DNA of 6,321 bases from a virus (lineage: Duplodnaviria > Heunggongvirae > Uroviricota > Caudoviricetes), in the IMG/VR virus record IMGVR_UViG_2681813201_000017, one strand, 5' to 3'. The position numbers were made by a program, and so were the translations under genes. Each line of letters opens with the position of its first letter. Position 1 is the stretch's first letter. The notes beneath the pieces were generated by a model that saw only the letters and a program-made list of their open reading frames with translations, made no database searches and was not told the origin of the DNA. Shown one piece after another: positions 1-6,321 of the stretch.

Positions 1-50
1 GCGCCGGGAATGGCGCGGTCTGCAGAAAATGAGGCAGGAAAACGCATGCA

Positions 51-83
51 AAGCCATGCACCTTATCGATGCATGGCTTTTTT
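51..83. terminator. Rho-independent terminator-like hairpin, probably bidirectional, stronger on the + strand
   Basis: Perfect 10-bp stem (51-60 aagccatgca / 70-79 tgcatggctt) with 9-nt loop, followed on + strand by a T-run 78-83. On the - strand the stem is followed by tttgcatgcgtttt, a weaker U-tract. Lies just downstream of the psu stop (114). Confidence 0.55.
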
Positions 84-113
84 CAGTAAAAACGGGCGGA
101 TTTTCGGGGAATT

Positions 114-686
114 TTACACAGACTGACGTGATGCCAGTTGCGCACTTTTACGCGAAAAAATCATGTTCTGCGCAGGGGTGAATTTTTCACGGCTGTCATC
201 CACAGAAGCCGCGTCAGGCCTGAATCCGATAGTCGTTAAAATGTCGCTATCCTGTGCGGAATAATTAATTTTTTCACCCTTCGCAAGCCAGGACAGGAGG
301 GCTTCACGCAGGGCATCTGTGGCACGCTGTATGGCACAGTTTCGGGCAATGGCCGTCAGCTCACTGTAGCCCATCAGCTCCGGTGCCAGTGCCGCCGCCA
401 GTGCTGTGCCGTGCTGCTGCATAAAATCATTCAGCCGGTCGCGGATGCTGATGTGCTGAACGGCTTCATGCGAACGAATATAACGACCGGCGGCCTGATT
501 CACCTGCCATTTTCTGACTTCGATAATATTGCGTAATTCGTCCAGGCGACTGACGTTTCTGCCTTCTCCTGACAGAAGCCGCAGGTATTCCTGTTCGGCC
601 GCTGCCAGCTCATTTTTGCGTTGCAGCCATGCTGCTTTGTTATTCTGACAGGTGTCAAAGGCCTGCTGTAAGGCTGTGCTTTCCAT
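114..686 (-). CDS. psu: Psu, polarity suppression protein (Rho antagonist / capsid decoration) of P4-type satellites, 190 aa
   Basis: ORF of exactly 190 aa as in P4 Psu; N-terminus MESTALQQAFDTCQNNKAAW matches my recollection of P4 Psu; last gene of the sid-delta-psu operon order; AGAGA-type RBS upstream of ATG at 686. Confidence 0.9.
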   Translation of the reverse strand: MESTALQQAFDTCQNNKAAWLQRKNELAAAEQEYLRLLSGEGRNVSRLDELRNIIEVRKWQVNQAAGRYIRSHEAVQHISIRDRLNDFMQQHGTALAAALAPELMGYSELTAIARNCAIQRATDALREALLSWLAKGEKINYSAQDSDILTTIGFRPDAASVDDSREKFTPAQNMIFSRKSAQLASRQSV

Positions 687-759
687 CGTTATCTCTTTCT
701 CATCATGCTGAAGAATAAAAATACGGTGTGCGGCGACGGCCGGGGTTAACCGGCAGCCT

Positions 760-1260
760 TCATTCCAGACGCAGCGAATATGATTGTGTTTTTAACCGTA
801 CTGGCGGCAGTTCCTGTTTTTCATGCAGGCGTTCTGCCAGTTCGTCCGGCGTGACCGGGCGGACAATGAAGCGGGTGATGGTCTGAAGCGTTTTAAACAC
901 CAGACCACAGCCCGGATCCGTGCACACATAAAAACGCTCGGTGACTTCCTGAGACAGACGCCGCGATGTTCTTGACAGTGCAAGGCCTTTACATCTCCGA
1001 CAACAATATCCGGTAACAAGCATTCTTTTCGGGCGTTTCATACTGCCGGAGGCTGACGTCAGTGAATCGCGGTATCTCTGTTTGCCTGAAATGTATTCCA
1101 TTCCTGAATCTTTACAGTCAGAGAAAAAGCTTTCACTCGCTTCAAATGTCGCAGAGCAATAAATATTCCGGCACTGTGCAATCATTATCTTGGTGCCATC
1201 GTCCATGAAATGTGCGCGACGGGTGTGAGCAACATGTCCACACGACGGGCAGTAAATCAT
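760..1260 (-). CDS. delta: Delta, late-gene transcriptional activator with two tandem Ogr-type zinc-finger domains, 166 aa
   Basis: Start chosen at ATG 1260 (MIYCPSCGH...) rather than the ORF-track start at 1317, because this ATG overlaps the sid stop (ATGA at 1257-1260) and gives the 166 aa expected for P4 Delta. Two Cys4 modules are visible (CPSCGH...CRNIYC and CRRC...CTDPGC), as in Ogr/Delta. Confidence 0.85.
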   Translation of the reverse strand: MIYCPSCGHVAHTRRAHFMDDGTKIMIAQCRNIYCSATFEASESFFSDCKDSGMEYISGKQRYRDSLTSASGSMKRPKRMLVTGYCCRRCKGLALSRTSRRLSQEVTERFYVCTDPGCGLVFKTLQTITRFIVRPVTPDELAERLHEKQELPPVRLKTQSYSLRLE

Positions 1261-1991
1261 GACAGCAGTCCTCTGGCCTTCAGCTCTGCTCCCTGCTGGT
1301 CTATTTTGTCCTGCCACACCTTGCGCTGTGCCGGTGTGCCTGCCACCTCATAATCCATGTGCGGAAGTGTTGCCGCTGACAGTCCGGTCAGCCGGAGAAC
1401 CGGCTCACCGGTGAGGCTGATTTGCATCTGTTTAATTTTCTGTTCCAGCGATGATTTCACCTGCTGCATGACAGCCTTTTCCGGTGCGACATAGCCCTGA
1501 TGGCCGGTGGTGTTGGCGAGCGGATTTTCCTGTACCAGGATGCTCAGATGCATTGCCCGGACAAGCGCCTCACAGGTTTCATTCAGGGCGTGTTCCAGCT
1601 CATGCTCTGCATACAGACTCAGAAGATGATGATGTGCCTTCCGGTAGGCGGTGGCCGTGCTGTCACACGCCCCTTTCAGGCGTTCACGTTCAAAATTCAG
1701 CACCACGGCCAGATTGTCATATTCCTGTACCAGCTCCCGGCGTGCCACGCGCTCAATGTGGCGCTGTTTCAGCTCGTCGCTCAGGACACCACCGGCTGCA
1801 CGAAAGGCCGTGCGCCAGTCGTCAGCATCGTTTCCGTCGGCCTGCGTCAGCGCATTTTTTTCCTGCTCTGCCCGTTCAATGGCCGTGACGGTCTCATCCA
1901 TCAGGCGGGCGTTCTCAAGATGAGCGACTCTGGCCTTTTCCAGTTGTGCCAGTGCGGGTTGCAGATATTCAGGGATGGTGTTGTCAGACAT
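1257..1991 (-). CDS. sid: Sid, external scaffold protein that redirects helper capsid assembly to small size, 244 aa
   Basis: Start chosen at ATG 1991 (MSDNTIPEYLQ...) with GAGGAG RBS 2001-2006 on the - strand, giving 244 aa as in P4 Sid; the ORF track extends 6 codons further upstream (2009) without an RBS. Stop overlaps delta start. Confidence 0.9.
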   Translation of the reverse strand: MSDNTIPEYLQPALAQLEKARVAHLENARLMDETVTAIERAEQEKNALTQADGNDADDWRTAFRAAGGVLSDELKQRHIERVARRELVQEYDNLAVVLNFERERLKGACDSTATAYRKAHHHLLSLYAEHELEHALNETCEALVRAMHLSILVQENPLANTTGHQGYVAPEKAVMQQVKSSLEQKIKQMQISLTGEPVLRLTGLSAATLPHMDYEVAGTPAQRKVWQDKIDQQGAELKARGLLS

Positions 1992-2025
1992 TTTCCGGCT
2001 CCTCGTCACTTCAGGTTAAGAAAAT

Positions 2026-2043
2026 TGTGACGTACACCGGACA
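2026..2043. promoter_or_regulatory. TGT-N12-ACA dyad, candidate Ogr/Delta activator site of a late promoter
   Basis: TGT at 2026-2028, 12-nt spacer, ACA at 2041-2043, centre about 2034.5. Lies 35-50 bp upstream of the sid ATG (1991) on the other strand. Orientation and assignment (sid promoter versus a divergent rightward late promoter) cannot be settled from sequence alone. Confidence 0.4.
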
Positions 2044-2063
2044 ACAACACGACGCATTGCAGA

Positions 2064-2081
2064 TGTGCCAGCCCTGACACA
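2064..2081. promoter_or_regulatory. Second TGT-N12-ACA dyad, candidate Delta/Ogr site for the sid promoter
   Basis: TGT 2064-2066, 12-nt spacer, ACA 2079-2081, centre about 2073.5. If the site is centred near -55 as in P2/P4 late promoters, the leftward transcript would start near 2019, leaving a leader of about 28 nt before the sid ATG at 1991. Confidence 0.45.
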
Positions 2082-2140
2082 GGAGACTCATCCTCAGACC
2101 GGCAAGCCAGGAAAAGGTCGCAGGAAAAACCGGCTTACTG

Positions 2141-2178
2141 TTTGTTTTTTTATATTTTACTGTTCACCTCTGTTCACC
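2141..2178 (+). repeat. AT-rich tract plus two direct TGTTCACC octamers (alpha-binding type I iteron sequence), ori-like
   Basis: tgtttgtttttttatattttac (2141-2160, AT-rich) followed by TGTTCACC at 2161-2168 and 2171-2178, a 10-bp register. The same octamer recurs in the cluster downstream of alpha. The array abuts the N-run, so further copies may be hidden. Confidence 0.5.
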
Positions 2179-2187
2179 TTAAGAAAA

Positions 2188-2262: not shown

Positions 2263-2317
2263 ACGATCCCATTATGCCGCGAGTCAATGGTAGCTCAGGC
2301 GGGGCAGCCTCCGGGCT

Positions 2318-2345
2318 GGCCGGTATTCTTCGAGGCCGGTATTCT
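2318..2345 (+). repeat. Tandem direct repeat GGCCGGTATTCT x2 (2318-2329 and 2334-2345) in the leader of the rightward operon
   Basis: Two perfect 12-nt copies 16 nt apart, separated by tcga. Position corresponds to the immunity region of P4-type elements, where short sequences pair with the CI antisense RNA; assignment is inference. Confidence 0.35.
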
Positions 2346-2358
2346 CACCCCCGTCTGG

Positions 2359-2400
2359 GCTATCGCCATCGAGCGTGAGAACTCCGGCGATAGCAGTTAT
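2359..2400 (+). promoter_or_regulatory. Hairpin (9-bp stem, 18-nt loop) followed by a U-rich stretch; candidate attenuator or terminator upstream of the first rightward ORF
   Basis: gctatcgcc (2359-2367) pairs with ggcgatagc (2386-2394); followed by cagttatttgct. It sits immediately before the AAGGAGG RBS at 2411-2417. Confidence 0.3.
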
Positions 2401-2424
2401 TTGCTACTCGAAGGAGGCTGCCTT

Positions 2425-2622
2425 ATGGCTACAACCCTTACCCCCTCACACCCTGAATTTGTCTTTGTGTTTGCGGCTGTCCGTCGCGCAGACCGTCATC
2501 CCCGTATCTGTATGCTTCGCACCGTCGCCGGTGATGAACGCAGTGCCCGCCGTTCCCTTGTCCGTGACTATGTGCTCTCCCTTGCTGCCCGTCTGCCGGT
2601 GGTGGAGGTGTCCCGTGCGTAA
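2425..2622 (+). CDS. Small 65-aa protein, first ORF of the rightward (early/left-operon-like) transcription unit; occupies the position of kil in P4
   Basis: ATG 2425 preceded by strong RBS AAGGAGG (2411-2417, 7-nt spacing); stop TAA 2620-2622 overlaps the GTG start of the next ORF. Identity with P4 Kil is inferred from position only. Confidence 0.45.
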
Positions 2623-2902
2623 TAAAAAAGCCCCTCAGACCGTCTCAGCGCGTCATGACGCCCGTGAACACCTCAGCATTGAGGCTTACCATAAGCTCAA
2701 CCGCGCCAGCGCCGTATCCCAGTTTGTTGGGGGTGATTTGATTCACCGTGAACTCTCCGGCCTGCATCAGCTCTACATTCCGCATATTTTCAGCTACCTG
2801 AATGAAGATATTGATTTTGTGCTGAATGAACTGAAAGCCAAAGGCCTGTGCCGCGATTTTCTCGCCCAGCAGAAAGACCGGGGAGACAGGACGCATGTTT
2901 GA
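2615..2902 (+). CDS. 95-aa protein at the position of P4 Epsilon (helper prophage derepression); start at GTG
   Basis: GTG 2615 preceded by GGAGG (2604-2608, 6-nt spacing). The longer ORF-track version (from 2375) has an N-terminal part that overlaps the 65-aa ORF in another frame and lacks an RBS. Stop TGA 2900-2902 overlaps the ATG of the next ORF. Size and synteny fit Epsilon; I cannot verify the sequence. Confidence 0.5.
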
Positions 2903-3350
2903 TTTTCCCCAGCCCGGTGAGATTTACCGTTCTGCCGGTTTTCCCGATGTGGCCGTGGTCGGCATTCTGGAAGACGGTATTCCGTGGGAAATGCCGTACC
3001 GCTGCCCGGAAATTGTCTGGAACCCGTACCGCCGTAAATTCAGTATCCTTGTGCGTATCCTCGCTGACGGACGCACCACAGACATCCCGCTGGGGCGTTT
3101 TCTGCGGGAATTTACCTGTGACCGTCCTGACCTGTTTAAACGCAGCCCCGTAAACCGGCATGCGGTACTGAAAGAAATGGCCGGAGACCCGGAATTACAG
3201 AAATGGCGGGAAAAATATCTGGATATTTACCCGCAGGACACTGTTCCGGTCAGCCGGGCAGCACCGGTGGCGCGGGAATGGCGGGAAATTCCCCGCACGG
3301 AGCCTGACCCGGAAACCACCCCGGATAACAGTTACCGCAATTATCTGTAA
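2895..3350 (+). CDS. 151-aa hypothetical protein (size and position of P4 orf151), function unknown
   Basis: ATG 2895 with GGAG 2882-2885 upstream; start overlaps the stop of the preceding ORF (ATGTTTGA); uninterrupted 151 codons in a compactly packed operon. Confidence 0.7.
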   Translation: MFDFPQPGEIYRSAGFPDVAVVGILEDGIPWEMPYRCPEIVWNPYRRKFSILVRILADGRTTDIPLGRFLREFTCDRPDLFKRSPVNRHAVLKEMAGDPELQKWREKYLDIYPQDTVPVSRAAPVAREWREIPRTEPDPETTPDNSYRNYL

Positions 3351-3378
3351 TTAAAAAACGACCCCCGAAAAATTAAAT

Positions 3379-3404
3379 GTGCGTATTCGCGCAGGGATAC
3401 GCAC
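3379..3404. promoter_or_regulatory. Inverted repeat / hairpin in the intergenic region between the 151-aa and 106-aa ORFs
   Basis: gtgcgtat (3379-3386) pairs with atacgcac (3397-3404), 8-bp stem and 10-nt loop. There is no T-run on the + strand; on the - strand it is followed by atttaatttttcggggg, so as a terminator it is oriented against the operon. Confidence 0.35.
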
Positions 3405-3423
3405 GTCTTCAGGAGACGCAGAT

Positions 3424-3489
3424 ATGCCTTATCAGTTAATGCAACCGGCACGGAATGCAGTCATCTGTCACAGGGAGAAAAGCAAATGA
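3424..3489 (+). CDS. Candidate 21-codon upstream ORF / leader peptide ([21 protein letters not shown]) coupled to the 106-aa ORF
   Basis: ATG 3424 preceded by AGGAG (3411-3415, 8-nt spacing); stop TGA 3487-3489 overlaps the ATG 3486-3488 of the next ORF (ATGA). Confidence 0.25.
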
Positions 3490-3806
3490 AAACACCCTTA
3501 CCGCCCGTCTTACGCGCTGCCCTTTACCGTCGCGCTGTCGCCTGTGCCTGGCTGACCGTGTGCGAACGTCAGCACCGCTACCCGCATCTCACCCTTGAGT
3601 CACTGGAGGCGGCCATCGCCGCTGAGCTGGAAGGCTTTTATCTGCGCCAGCACGGTGAGGAAAAAGGGCGTCAGATAGCCTGTGCCCTGCTGGAAGATTT
3701 AATGGAATCCGGCCCCCTGAAGGCCGCGCCGTCGCTGTCCTTTCTCGGGCTGGTTGTGATGGATGAACTCTGTGCCCGTCACATAAAAGCGCCGGTACTG
3801 CACTGA
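3486..3806 (+). CDS. 106-aa hypothetical protein immediately upstream of alpha, function unknown
   Basis: ATG 3486 with GGGAGA upstream; ends 14 nt before the alpha start; same strand and compact operon arrangement. Confidence 0.65.
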
Positions 3807-3820
3807 AGGAGAACAACACC

Positions 3821-6154
3821 ATGAAAATGAACGTAACCGCCACCGTCAGCCATGCGCTCGGCCACTGGCCGCGTATTCTCCCGGCGCTGGGGATTCAGGT
3901 GCTGAAAAACCGTCATCAGCCCTGTCCGGTCTGTGGCGGGAGTGACCGCTTCCGTTTTGATGACAGGGAGGGGCGCGGCACCTGGTACTGCAATCAGTGT
4001 GGTGCCGGTGACGGCCTGAAACTGGTTGAAAAGGTGTTTGGTGTTTCCCCGTCCGACGCGGCCGCAAAGGTGGCTGCCGTGACCGGCAGCCTGCCCACGG
4101 CTGACCCGGCAGTGACGGCCGCCGCCGGCGCTGAAACAGACGCTGCCCGGAAGAACGCCGCCGCACTGGCACAAACCCTGATGGCAAAAACCCGTCCCGG
4201 AACCGGTAACGCCTACCTGACCCGCAAGGGCTTTCCCGGCCGGGAATGCCGGATGCTGACCGGCACACACAGAGCCGGTGGCGTGAGCTGGCGCGCCGGT
4301 GACCTTGTGGTGCCACTGTATGACGACAGCGGCGAACTGGTTAACCTTCAGTTAATCAGTGCTGACGGCCGTAAGCGCACCCTGAAAGGCGGACAGGTCA
4401 GGGGCACCTGTCACACCCTTGAAGGACAGAATCAGGCCGGAAAACGTCTGTGGATAGCGGAGGGATACGCGACCGCACTTACCGTACATCACCTGACCGG
4501 TGAAACGGTGATGGTGGCGCTTTCTTCCGTGAACCTCCTTTCTCTGGCCAGCCTTGCCCGGCAGAAGCATCCGGCCTGTCAGATTGTCCTTGCCGCAGAC
4601 CGTGACCTCAGCGGTGACGGCCAGAAAAAAGCCGCCGCAGCCGCAGATGCGTGTGAGGGCGTTGTTGCCCTGCCGCCGGTCTTCGGTGACTGGAATGATG
4701 CCTTCACGCAGTACGGCGGGGAGGCCACCCGTAAGGCCATTTATGATGCCATCCGGCCACCGGCTGAAAGCCCGTTCGATACCATGAGCGAAGCGGAGTT
4801 TTCCGCCATGAGTACCAGCGAAAAGGCCATGCGTATCTATGAGCATTACGGCGAGGCGCTCGCGGTCGATGCCAACGGCCAGCTTCTGTCCCGCTATGAA
4901 AATGGTGTCTGGAAGGTGCTGCCGCCACAGGACTTTGCCCGGGATGTGGCCGGGCTGTTTCAGCGTCTGCGCGCGCCGTTCTCCTCCGGGAAGGTGGCCT
5001 CCGTGGTGGACACCCTGAAGCTGATTATTCCGCAGCAGGAAGCCCCCTCCCGCCGCCTGATTGGCTTTCGTAACGGCGTGCTCGACACGCAGAACGGCAC
5101 GTTCCACCCGCACAGTCCGTCACACTGGATGCGCACCCTGTGCGATGTGGATTTCACCCCGCCGGTGGACGGTGAAACGCTGGAGACCCACGCCCCCGCG
5201 TTCTGGCGCTGGCTTGACCGTGCCGCCGGTGGCCGTGCGGAAAAACGCGACGTGATTCTGGCCGCACTGTTTATGGTGCTGGCAAACCGCTACGACTGGC
5301 AGCTCTTTCTGGAGGTGACCGGTCCCGGCGGCAGCGGCAAAAGTATCATGGCCGAAATAGCCACCCTGCTGGCCGGGGAGGATAACGCCACGTCGGCCAC
5401 CATCGAGACGCTGGAATCCCCGCGTGAACGTGCCGCGTTAACTGGCTTCTCACTGATACGCCTGCCGGACCAGGAAAAATGGAGCGGCGACGGAGCCGGA
5501 CTCAAGGCCATCACCGGCGGCGATGCGGTGTCCGTTGACCCGAAATACCGGGATGCGTACTCCACGCATATCCCGGCGGTGATTCTGGCCGTGAACAATA
5601 ACCCGATGCGCTTCACCGACCGCAGCGGCGGCGTGTCACGCCGGCGGGTGATTATTCACTTCCCGGAACAGATAGCCCCGCAGGAGCGCGACCCGCAGCT
5701 TAAGGACAAAATCACCCGCGAGCTGGCGGTCATCGTGCGTCACCTGATGCAGAAGTTCAGCGACCCGATGCTCGCCCGGTCACTGCTTCAGTCCCAGCAG
5801 AACTCAGACGAGGCACTGAACATCAAACGGGATGCCGACCCGACGTTTGATTTTATCGGCTATCTGGAAACCCTGCCGCAGACCAGCGGCATGTATATGG
5901 GGAACGCCAGTATCATCCCGCGTAATTACCGTAAATACCTCTATCACGCCTATCTGGCCTACATGGAGGCAAACGGCTACCGGAATGTACTCAGTCTGAA
6001 AATGTTCGGGCTGGGGCTGCCGGTGATGCTGAAGGAATACGGACTGAATTACGAGAAGCGCCATACCAAACAGGGGATACAGACCAACCTGACGCTGAAA
6101 GAGGAAAGCTACGGCGACTGGCTGCCAAAATGTGACGACCCTGCAACAGCCTGA
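3821..6154 (+). CDS. alpha: Alpha, bifunctional DNA primase-helicase and origin-binding replication protein of P4-type satellites, 777 aa
   Basis: 777-aa ORF with AAGGAG RBS (3806-3811). N-terminal zinc-ribbon CPVCGG...CNQCG (nt 3923-4000), primase motif EGYATA (nt 4460-4477), Walker A GPGGSGKS (nt 5321-5344). N-terminus MKMNVTATVSHALGHWPRILPALG matches my recollection of P4 Alpha. Confidence 0.95.
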   Translation: MKMNVTATVSHALGHWPRILPALGIQVLKNRHQPCPVCGGSDRFRFDDREGRGTWYCNQCGAGDGLKLVEKVFGVSPSDAAAKVAAVTGSLPTADPAVTAAAGAETDAARKNAAALAQTLMAKTRPGTGNAYLTRKGFPGRECRMLTGTHRAGGVSWRAGDLVVPLYDDSGELVNLQLISADGRKRTLKGGQVRGTCHTLEGQNQAGKRLWIAEGYATALTVHHLTGETVMVALSSVNLLSLASLARQKHPACQIVLAADRDLSGDGQKKAAAAADACEGVVALPPVFGDWNDAFTQYGGEATRKAIYDAIRPPAESPFDTMSEAEFSAMSTSEKAMRIYEHYGEALAVDANGQLLSRYENGVWKVLPPQDFARDVAGLFQRLRAPFSSGKVASVVDTLKLIIPQQEAPSRRLIGFRNGVLDTQNGTFHPHSPSHWMRTLCDVDFTPPVDGETLETHAPAFWRWLDRAAGGRAEKRDVILAALFMVLANRYDWQLFLEVTGPGGSGKSIMAEIATLLAGEDNATSATIETLESPRERAALTGFSLIRLPDQEKWSGDGAGLKAITGGDAVSVDPKYRDAYSTHIPAVILAVNNNPMRFTDRSGGVSRRRVIIHFPEQIAPQERDPQLKDKITRELAVIVRHLMQKFSDPMLARSLLQSQQNSDEALNIKRDADPTFDFIGYLETLPQTSGMYMGNASIIPRNYRKYLYHAYLAYMEANGYRNVLSLKMFGLGLPVMLKEYGLNYEKRHTKQGIQTNLTLKEESYGDWLPKCDDPATA

Positions 6155-6161
6155 CCCACCT

Positions 6162-6186
6162 GACCGGCATCTGCCGGTCTTTTTTT
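6162..6186 (+). terminator. Rho-independent terminator of the alpha operon
   Basis: GC-rich hairpin gaccggc-atct-gccggtc (6162-6179) immediately followed by tttttttat (6180-6188), 8 nt after the alpha stop codon (6152-6154). Confidence 0.8.
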
Positions 6187-6204
6187 ATCCCTGAATTCCC
6201 CGAA

Positions 6205-6296
6205 GGTGAACAATCCACTGTTCACCCTTCACCGTATATTCACCCGTTATCACACTGAAATTAAAAGAGAAAAACGAAAGGTGAACAGTGTGAACA
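6205..6296. repeat. Cluster of TGTTCACC-type iterons in both orientations downstream of alpha (crr-like cis replication region)
   Basis: GGTGAACA 6205-6212 (inverted), TGTTCACC 6219-6226, degenerate cCTTCACC 6226-6233 and TaTTCACC 6237-6244, GGTGAACA 6280-6287, tGTGAACA 6289-6296. The first two form an inverted pair GGTGAACA-atccac-TGTTCACC. An A8/T6 tract follows at 6304-6320. Confidence 0.6.
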
Positions 6297-6321
6297 ATCA
6301 AATCAAAAAAAACTTTTTTCT

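Follow-up and report, generated by a model that had tools for sequence, protein, structure and literature searches.

The psu-adjacent edge of a P4-type satellite prophage as a probable part of the cos packaging module, with ATGCA boxes as candidate terminase-recognition sites

The first 113 positions of the window (by which is meant the whole 6,321-bp stretch of DNA analysed) probably represent the psu-proximal two-thirds of a cos packaging module of ~165 bp, with a set of ATGCA boxes as its putative terminase-recognition part; the comparison of sequences across P2- and P4-like elements leads us to give this reading a probability of roughly 0.65. The hairpin located in this region is composed of the same boxes: a triple ATGCA-box element (46-50, 56-60 and 69-73) provides its two arms, one from box 2 and one from box 3, and the pairing results from the inversion of box 3 with respect to box 2. 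As would be expected of an extended cos region, the sequence is contiguous with the cohesive end, is homologous to the corresponding region of helper phages, keeps a fixed distance and is retained while the cargo is swapped.

The window corresponds to a P4-type satellite prophage that runs in the opposite direction to the record of reference phage P4 (98.7% identity), with positions 1-2187 aligning to X51522 11573-9387 at 98.6% identity and positions 2270-6321 to X51522 8521-4469 at 98.8%. The P4 core genes are present in P4 order and are 98.6-98.8% identical to those of P4. The psu gene (114-686, minus strand, stop codon at 114-116) encodes the polarity suppression and capsid decoration protein of 190 aa, shows 98.7% DNA identity to P4 psu and has homologs with PF07455. 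The other members are delta (760-1260, minus strand), sid (1257-1991, minus strand), the CI RNA (2283-2370; Rfam C4 family, 74.3 bits), epsilon, orf151 and orf106, and alpha (3821-6154, plus strand) with the alpha terminator directly after it (6162-6179), so that the order psu-delta-sid ... alpha is common to the window and P4. A run of 75 N at 2188-2262 stands for 864 bp of P4 (8522-9386) that are also present in E. coli relatives, and the stretch that it hides comprises the ori repeats, vis/ORF88 and the PLE/PLL/Psid promoter region. The closest loci have 2-8 mismatches over window positions 1-2187, and the nearest E. coli match, in O145 strain RM9154-C1 (locus L003), is 99.9% identical. In an Rfam search (E <= 1) the CI RNA was the only match in the window, with nothing detected in positions 1-113. 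An ORF at 29-181 (plus strand, 50 aa), which appears as a gene call on one public contig, was rejected, as its start falls in a hypervariable spacer and 5 of 37 satellites have 1-nt indels within it.

On the P4 map, window position 1 falls at coordinate 11573, which leaves 51 nt to the right end of the mature P4 genome; the cos cleavage site is located 51 bp left of position 1, outside the window. The cohesive end GTGCTTTCCCCGCCTCGCC stops 51 nt short of position 1 both in P4 and in the E. coli locus with 99.9% identity, L003, where it occupies 13931-13949 and position 1 falls at 14001. The P2-type cos that the first-pass annotation suggested seeking on this side is present in these two relatives. 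The P2-family cos core is given as 55 bp and credited to Ziermann and Calendar 1990 in three papers (PMC5694545, PMC9594776 and PMC3931495), which describe the 55-bp core only, with no mention of the palindrome (+52 to +67) or the ATGCA boxes (+97 to +124). No part of this core is inside the window: it stops ~15 nt short of position 1, and the window carries on directly from it as part of the same packaging module. The cos region has been described as the sole region homologous between P2 and P4 (PMC9122126), and longer cos flanks on cosmids were accompanied by ~2,000-fold better transduction, for which the flanks were suggested by the authors as a possible cause (PMC9594776).

Two further features were observed around the cut site. 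In L003 the cohesive end adjoins a GC-rich hairpin, CCGCCC/GGGCGG with a TTTTAAT tail (13950-13975; 26-51 nt to the left of position 1). This hairpin resembles a plus-strand terminator and belongs to the 55-bp cos core, and in helpers it is found downstream of the portal gene Q. A mosaic cos was identified in E. coli Res13-Lact-PEA14-20 (L171, 6920-7000, compared with L003 13920-14000), where the cohesive end is of 186 type (AATGCTCTCCCCGCCACGCC) and the right arm of P4 type (CGCCCGCTTTGCAGGGCGG...), which marks a recombination junction at or within the cohesive end that fits the cos-mediated exchange proposed by Rousset et al.

Positions 1-113 differ from the P4 psu-cos spacer at a single base (112/113 identical) and consist of conserved islands separated by a variable segment. 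The palindrome GCGCCGGGAATGGCGC at 1-16, which can form a hairpin, is the second conserved island of the cos right arm; it has offsets of ~+52 to +67 from the cohesive end, its helper consensus is CGCCAG..CTGGCG at ~+52 to +65, and it is visible in an ungapped profile of 72 P2-like phages. Across an alignment of 37 satellites, on which conservation and covariation were computed throughout, a standard pair is present in 78% of its cells and its covariation is not above that of shuffles. In Silvania confinis (L031) a (TGGCGT)n tandem expansion is inserted where this palindrome sits. The hypervariable spacer between the islands (17-41) has a mean pairwise identity of 54% among the 37 satellites. 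It is followed by box 1, CGCATGCAAAG (42-52), which is nearly invariant in satellites and has its ATGCA at 46-50, at offset +97 from the cohesive end. The 5' arm of the hairpin (50-60) holds box 2, with ATGCA at 56-60, offset +107, 10 bp past box 1, and the 3' arm (70-80) holds box 3, with ATGCA at 69-73, offset ~+120; the loop between them (61-69) has a mean identity of 77% and carries 1-nt indels in 5 of 37 satellites. The T6 run at 78-83 on the plus strand, which together with the stem makes up a terminator-like signal, falls in an 8-nt insertion relative to the aligned helper phages. The remaining positions, 84-113, form a conserved A/T-tract block, CAGTAAAAACGGGCGGATTTTCGGGGAATTTT, with 77% mean identity among satellites and homology to AAAAAACGGGGAAATCGCGGA of 186/SW9/P2-type helpers. 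The A/T runs at 78-83, 88-92, 101-104 and 112-115 are spaced at ~10-12 bp.

For the helpers, an IMG/VR scan that required the cos core alone recovered 115 unique sites: 84 were assigned as P2-like from an upstream portal gene and 15 as P4-like from a downstream psu, which left 16 unclassified. Occurrences of ATGC[AG] at these sites concentrate at three offsets, with 108 at 96-100, 102 at 106-110 and 116 at 116-125, and the median offset of box 1 is +97. Boxes 1 and 2 are present in 78 of the 84 P2-like phages analysed and are spaced by 10 bp in 76 of these 78, as they are in all 15 P4-like sites. When all three boxes are required to be strict ATGCA, the count is 15/15 for satellites, 35/84 for P2-like phages and 0 of 5,750 for shuffles. 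P2-like phages align with P4 from cos to approximately window position 80-105, and BLAST matches and alignments to P2, 186, SW9, pro483, YpM50 and a Klebsiella phage reach window positions 51-105. In some helpers the boxes are plain direct repeats that form no hairpin; the perfect stem has a median of 5 bp in helpers and is at least 7 bp long in 15/15 satellites, and a stem of at least 7 bp combined with at least five T was found in 0/84 helpers, whereas satellites have a T-rich tail. The perfect stem and T-rich tail, being confined to satellites, suggest an added satellite-specific role such as termination.

The module remains intact while cargo is exchanged on either side of it. Among satellites with differing cargo, homology extends leftwards past the cohesive end by ~7 nt, to ~78 bp from position 1, and in helpers with other cargo it stops directly after box 3. 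A separate bidirectional terminator, AAAAAAACCGGC..GCCGGTTT, is located ~55 nt beyond box 3 in phage 186 (L181, 237-264), where it is annotated as t95b, in P2 (L082), and in several 186- and SW9-type helpers (among them L096, L138 and L164). Its loop differs between helper phages; it is missing from satellites, in which the psu stop codon takes its place. Other repeats were noted beside cos in more distant phages: the right end of phiCTX (L179) carries TTCTGCR and GGTAATT repeats near cos, with R3-R6 and an IHF site annotated in the record, and at the right end of HP1 (L180) TTTCCGTG repeats adjoin cos. These cases suggest that repeat arrays beside cos are general in Peduoviridae, with the phiCTX and HP1 arrays being lineage-specific.

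The same arrangement is widespread among satellites. Forty-one psu loci were collected from many genera, with Psu proteins ~54-66% identical in nearly all of them, and a cos core was located downstream of the psu match in 38 of 40 loci tested, at a distance of 165-205 nt in 37 of them, representing many enterobacterial genera; the psu-cos spacer is therefore a module of fixed size. Three of the psu contigs are labelled as an 'uncultured Clostridiales' MAG (L009), Vagococcus sp. (L025) and Flammeovirga aprica (L044), labels that probably reflect enterobacterial contamination of those assemblies. Mean pairwise identity in the 37 satellites, all drawn from this collection, is 90% at positions 42-60 and 97% at 70-77, and 78% in the T-run, which takes the forms TTTTTT, TTAATT, TTATTT and TTTTAT. 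The stem shows no compensatory change in these satellites (covariation score 0.078, compared with 0.079 for shuffles), and none of the three hairpins tested for covariation rose above shuffles. The G53-C77 pair of the window is found in 9/37 satellites, and 27/37 have an A.C mismatch instead. The compensatory stem changes and the kept T tract that diverged relatives of an intrinsic terminator would display are thus both missing from this alignment, and the near-invariance of the arms with no covariation points to a constraint on the primary sequence, not on an RNA stem.

With respect to the hairpin itself, the first-pass annotation had placed it at 51-83, with its T-run on the plus strand and in convergent orientation with psu, and these observations hold to within one base: a perfect 11-bp inverted repeat, AAAGCCATGCA (50-60) and TGCATGGCTTT (70-80), encloses the 9-nt loop CCTTATCGA, the T6 run (78-83) lies on the 3' side of the stem on the plus strand, and psu is on the minus strand. 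It is the longest perfect inverted repeat in the whole window. A consensus terminator scan missed it because the loop of 9 nt exceeds the maximum of 8 accepted by the tool, and neither P4 record (X51522, NC_001609) annotates it, despite the annotation of the cII and alpha terminators there. As an RNA the plus strand folds at -16.0 kcal/mol (z = -3.6; 1 of 200 shuffles as stable) and the minus strand at -21.5 kcal/mol (z = -5.05; 0 of 200). The hairpin therefore has the stable, G+C-containing stem-loop of an intrinsic terminator, and on the plus strand also the uninterrupted T tract 3' of the stem. On the minus strand the stem is followed by TTTGCATGCGTTTTCC, in which the tract is TTT only and continues as GCATGCGTTTT; the 33 nt between the end of the stem and the psu stop codon contain no other hairpin on this strand. 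When positions 1-125 were folded on the minus strand, a long-range pairing of 20-27 with 116-124 appeared, one partner of which lies in the hypervariable spacer. A d'Aubenton-Carafa-type discriminant, combined with modern energy parameters so that its threshold is approximate, gave about +8.0 for the plus strand and -2.6 for the minus strand in this lineage. The approximate score exceeds 0 in 4/37 satellites on the plus strand and in 8/37 on the minus strand, where its median is -6.5.

On the far side of cos, the first-pass annotation had expected variable cargo just outside the window, had held that no novel defence system could be supported from the window itself, and had named host DNA or a directly adjoining integrase with no cargo as the observation that would speak against this picture. 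The first two expectations agree with the relatives, in which the region outside the window was observed: variable cargo between cos and int begins ~78 bp left of position 1, the hotspot lies outside the window, and the flank is occupied by a helicase gene and a 140-aa ORF, not by host DNA or an integrase alone. In L003 the order is int (plus strand), a 623-aa ResIII/Helicase_C helicase (plus), the 140-aa ORF (plus), a strong terminator, cos and psu (minus), so that the cargo is convergent with psu. Contigs that carry the exact alpha protein of the window display int-helicase-140aa-cos-psu in 4 of the 5 places shown, with the fifth contig ending within the cargo. For the L003 cargo (11513-13803), PADLOC gave restriction-helicase-like matches only for the helicase, and no Pfam or PADLOC match was obtained for the 140-aa protein. 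The same psu-cos module (99.3-100% over window positions 1-700) adjoins differing cargo in either orientation; elements 99.3-99.6% identical over these positions carry ParA with a hypothetical protein, a four-gene ABC-three-component system on the psu strand, or an AAA ATPase, and they also carry other integrases. In reference P4 the cargo beyond cos is gop-beta-cII, of which gop and beta are co-directional with psu. The cargo region is the known psu-int hotspot, which adjoins cos and accepts cargo in either orientation (Rousset et al. 2022, PMC9122126). The pair of helicase and 140-aa protein (WP_000220867 and WP_000611230) is catalogued in Table S1A of that study, and the term 'ResIII' is absent from its main text.

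Transcription units that converge on cos differ in how they end. The L003 cargo has its own plus-strand terminator before cos (GAAGGCACC..GGTGCCTT + T7, 13818-13846), and some satellites have none; in L039, L041, L036, L043, L120, L042, L040 and L035 a convergent cargo ORF ends 1-46 nt from the cos core, so its transcript must cross cos before any terminator. The hotspots of helper and satellite lie on opposite sides of cos, that of P2 being on the box side (Q, cos, boxes, cargo, A; helper loci L004 and L006) and that of P4 on the other (int, cargo, cos, boxes, psu).

Two terminator readings of the hairpin have to be weighed against the packaging reading. The first-pass annotation had seen in it a plus-strand terminator that insulates psu, and of this claim the plausible score of the stem with T6 stands, whereas a dedicated or main role of this kind fits the comparative data poorly. 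It seems rather unlikely that a dedicated plus-strand intrinsic terminator stops transcription from the cargo and integrase side across cos and shields psu from antisense read-through, even though the perfect 11-bp stem runs into T6, the approximate discriminant reaches +8 in this lineage, the cargo of this element is convergent with psu, and at least eight satellites have a cargo ORF ending so close to cos (1-46 nt) that there is no room for a terminator of its own. The T-rich tail, specific to satellites and found in 0/84 helpers, also speaks for such a role. However, in the nearest relative the strong terminator of the cargo already precedes cos, and the second terminator-like hairpin (CCGCCC/GGGCGG + TTTTAAT) abuts the cohesive end. 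Only 4/37 satellites score above zero on the plus strand, the A.C mismatch separates stem and T-run in 27/37, covariation is absent, and the T-run, variable among the 37 satellites, is unrelated to cargo orientation, with TTTTTT in 9/21 convergent and 14/30 co-directional elements. The genes next to cos in reference P4 (gop, beta) are co-directional with psu, and the arms are family-wide boxes that in helpers are accompanied by no T-run and by a separate terminator further out. A minus-strand terminator of the late sid-delta-psu transcript, which would keep late transcription out of cos and the cargo, is possible but doubtful. At 33 nt past the psu stop, the hairpin is the first stable one on the way to cos, and its minus-strand form is the more stable of the two (z = -5), with UUU(U)GCAUGCGUUUU after the stem invariant in satellites; these also have no counterpart of the separate CCGGC terminator found at this place in helpers, and since Psu blocks Rho, as is established (PMC11718236), an intrinsic terminator would be the sole dependable late stop. 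On the other hand, the U-tract is interrupted as well as short, the approximate score comes to -2.6 in this lineage and is positive in 8/37 satellites only (median -6.5), X51522 and NC_001609 annotate no terminator there although those of cII and alpha are annotated, and the conserved tail is box 1 read backwards, which explains its conservation without termination. A secondary terminator role in the P4 lineage is plausible in either direction, given the better T-run of the plus strand and, for the minus strand, the more stable stem, the nearby psu stop and the lack of another terminator.

Other readings concern the boxes as DNA. It is unlikely, though conceivable, that they are bound by a host factor or work through intrinsic DNA curvature from phased A/T tracts and do not involve the terminase directly. 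IHF is used at lambda cosB, the A/T runs recur every ~10-12 bp, the T-run variants are all A/T-rich, and the phiCTX record annotates an IHF site near cos; but the IHF consensus, as judged by eye, is unmatched in 42-80, and ATGCA boxes are specific to enterobacterial P2/186/P4 elements, with phiCTX and HP1 having other repeats. Lineage-specific repeats of this kind fit a co-evolving phage protein better than a conserved host factor. That the block has no function, being kept uniform by frequent cos recombination as it hitch-hikes with the cohesive end, is very improbable. Mosaic cos junctions do exist, as in strain Res13 with its 186-type cohesive end and P4-type right arm, and cos-mediated exchange has been proposed by Rousset et al. 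(PMC9122126). Hitch-hiking is nevertheless difficult to reconcile with the spacer between the cos core and the boxes being 54% identical and the boxes, which are farther away, 90-97%, or with boxes that stay at fixed offsets even in very divergent helpers where all else has diverged.

The preferred reading is that the phased ATGCA boxes would act on the DNA level as recognition or assembly sites for the helper terminase, perhaps joined in this recognition by the flanking palindrome and A/T tracts, and the element would then be comparable to a cosB-type accessory site. A satellite would have to mimic the terminase site of its helper in order to be packaged, and the terminase is, to our knowledge, the only factor of the helper that acts at cos in cis on the two genomes. 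The fixed spacing, the family-wide retention and this satellite mimicry together point to terminase recognition. In the P4 lineage, boxes 2 and 3 would have become a perfect hairpin with T6 behind it through a G at position 53 and the inserted T-run; between psu and convergent cargo, this hairpin may also serve as an intrinsic terminator, weak and roughly bidirectional. A more specific version, in which the boxes (+97, +107 and ~+120) and the palindrome are an uncharacterised cosB-like part of the enterobacterial P2/186-type cos and the P4 lineage re-used boxes 2 and 3 as a terminator replacing the separate one of helpers, can be offered only tentatively. A counterpoint to the comparison with cosB is that the boxes sit at the right end of the mature genome, a position that, by analogy with lambda, may correspond to cosQ and not to cosB.

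The psu-cos spacer of a near-copy of P4 and the published defence hotspot outside the window are already known. The family-wide ATGCA-box architecture of the extended cos region is the only mildly new point, and it may already be contained in Ziermann and Calendar 1990. The analysis sharpens the extent of the cos module, which begins ~7 nt to the left of the cohesive end, reaches ~130-165 nt in the direction of psu and includes the phased boxes. Such a picture could help in designing P2/P4 cosmids and transducing particles, for which flank length reportedly matters, and the edge of the module provides a clean boundary for delimiting hotspot cargo.

Among known systems, the reference P4 psu-cos spacer (X51522 / NC_001609, 11461-11624) has a hairpin identical to that of the window but differs in its cargo, which is gop-beta-cII instead of the convergent ResIII helicase and 140-aa ORF of the window's relatives. 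The 55-bp cos core of the P2 family belongs to the same module, and the palindrome (+52 to +67) and boxes (+97 to +124) present in the window are the more distal islands of that module. The t95b terminator of phage 186 resembles the window hairpin in being a stem-loop between an A-run and a T-run and between convergent units; however, t95b (AAAAAAACCGGC..GCCGGT) forms a hairpin of its own, located ~55 nt past box 3, with a loop that varies between helpers, and the window hairpin shows no covariation and no conserved T-run. The cos region of phiCTX (NC_003278), also of Peduoviridae, is similar to that of P2/P4 in its annotated short repeats R3-R6 within ~300 bp of cosR and its IHF site, although the repeats are different (TTCTGCR, GGTAATT) and there is no satellite context. 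With regard to phage lambda, the sequences and the terminase family are unrelated to those of P2/P4 cos, and P2, according to work cited in PMC2231350, packages circular monomers. The R-sites of lambda cosB, with IHF, and cosQ are nonetheless similar to the window in that short boxes at fixed, roughly helical spacing stand beside the nicking site and are kept across relatives, and by analogy the ATGCA boxes may have the same role in terminase recognition or assembly as these accessory sites of lambda cos.
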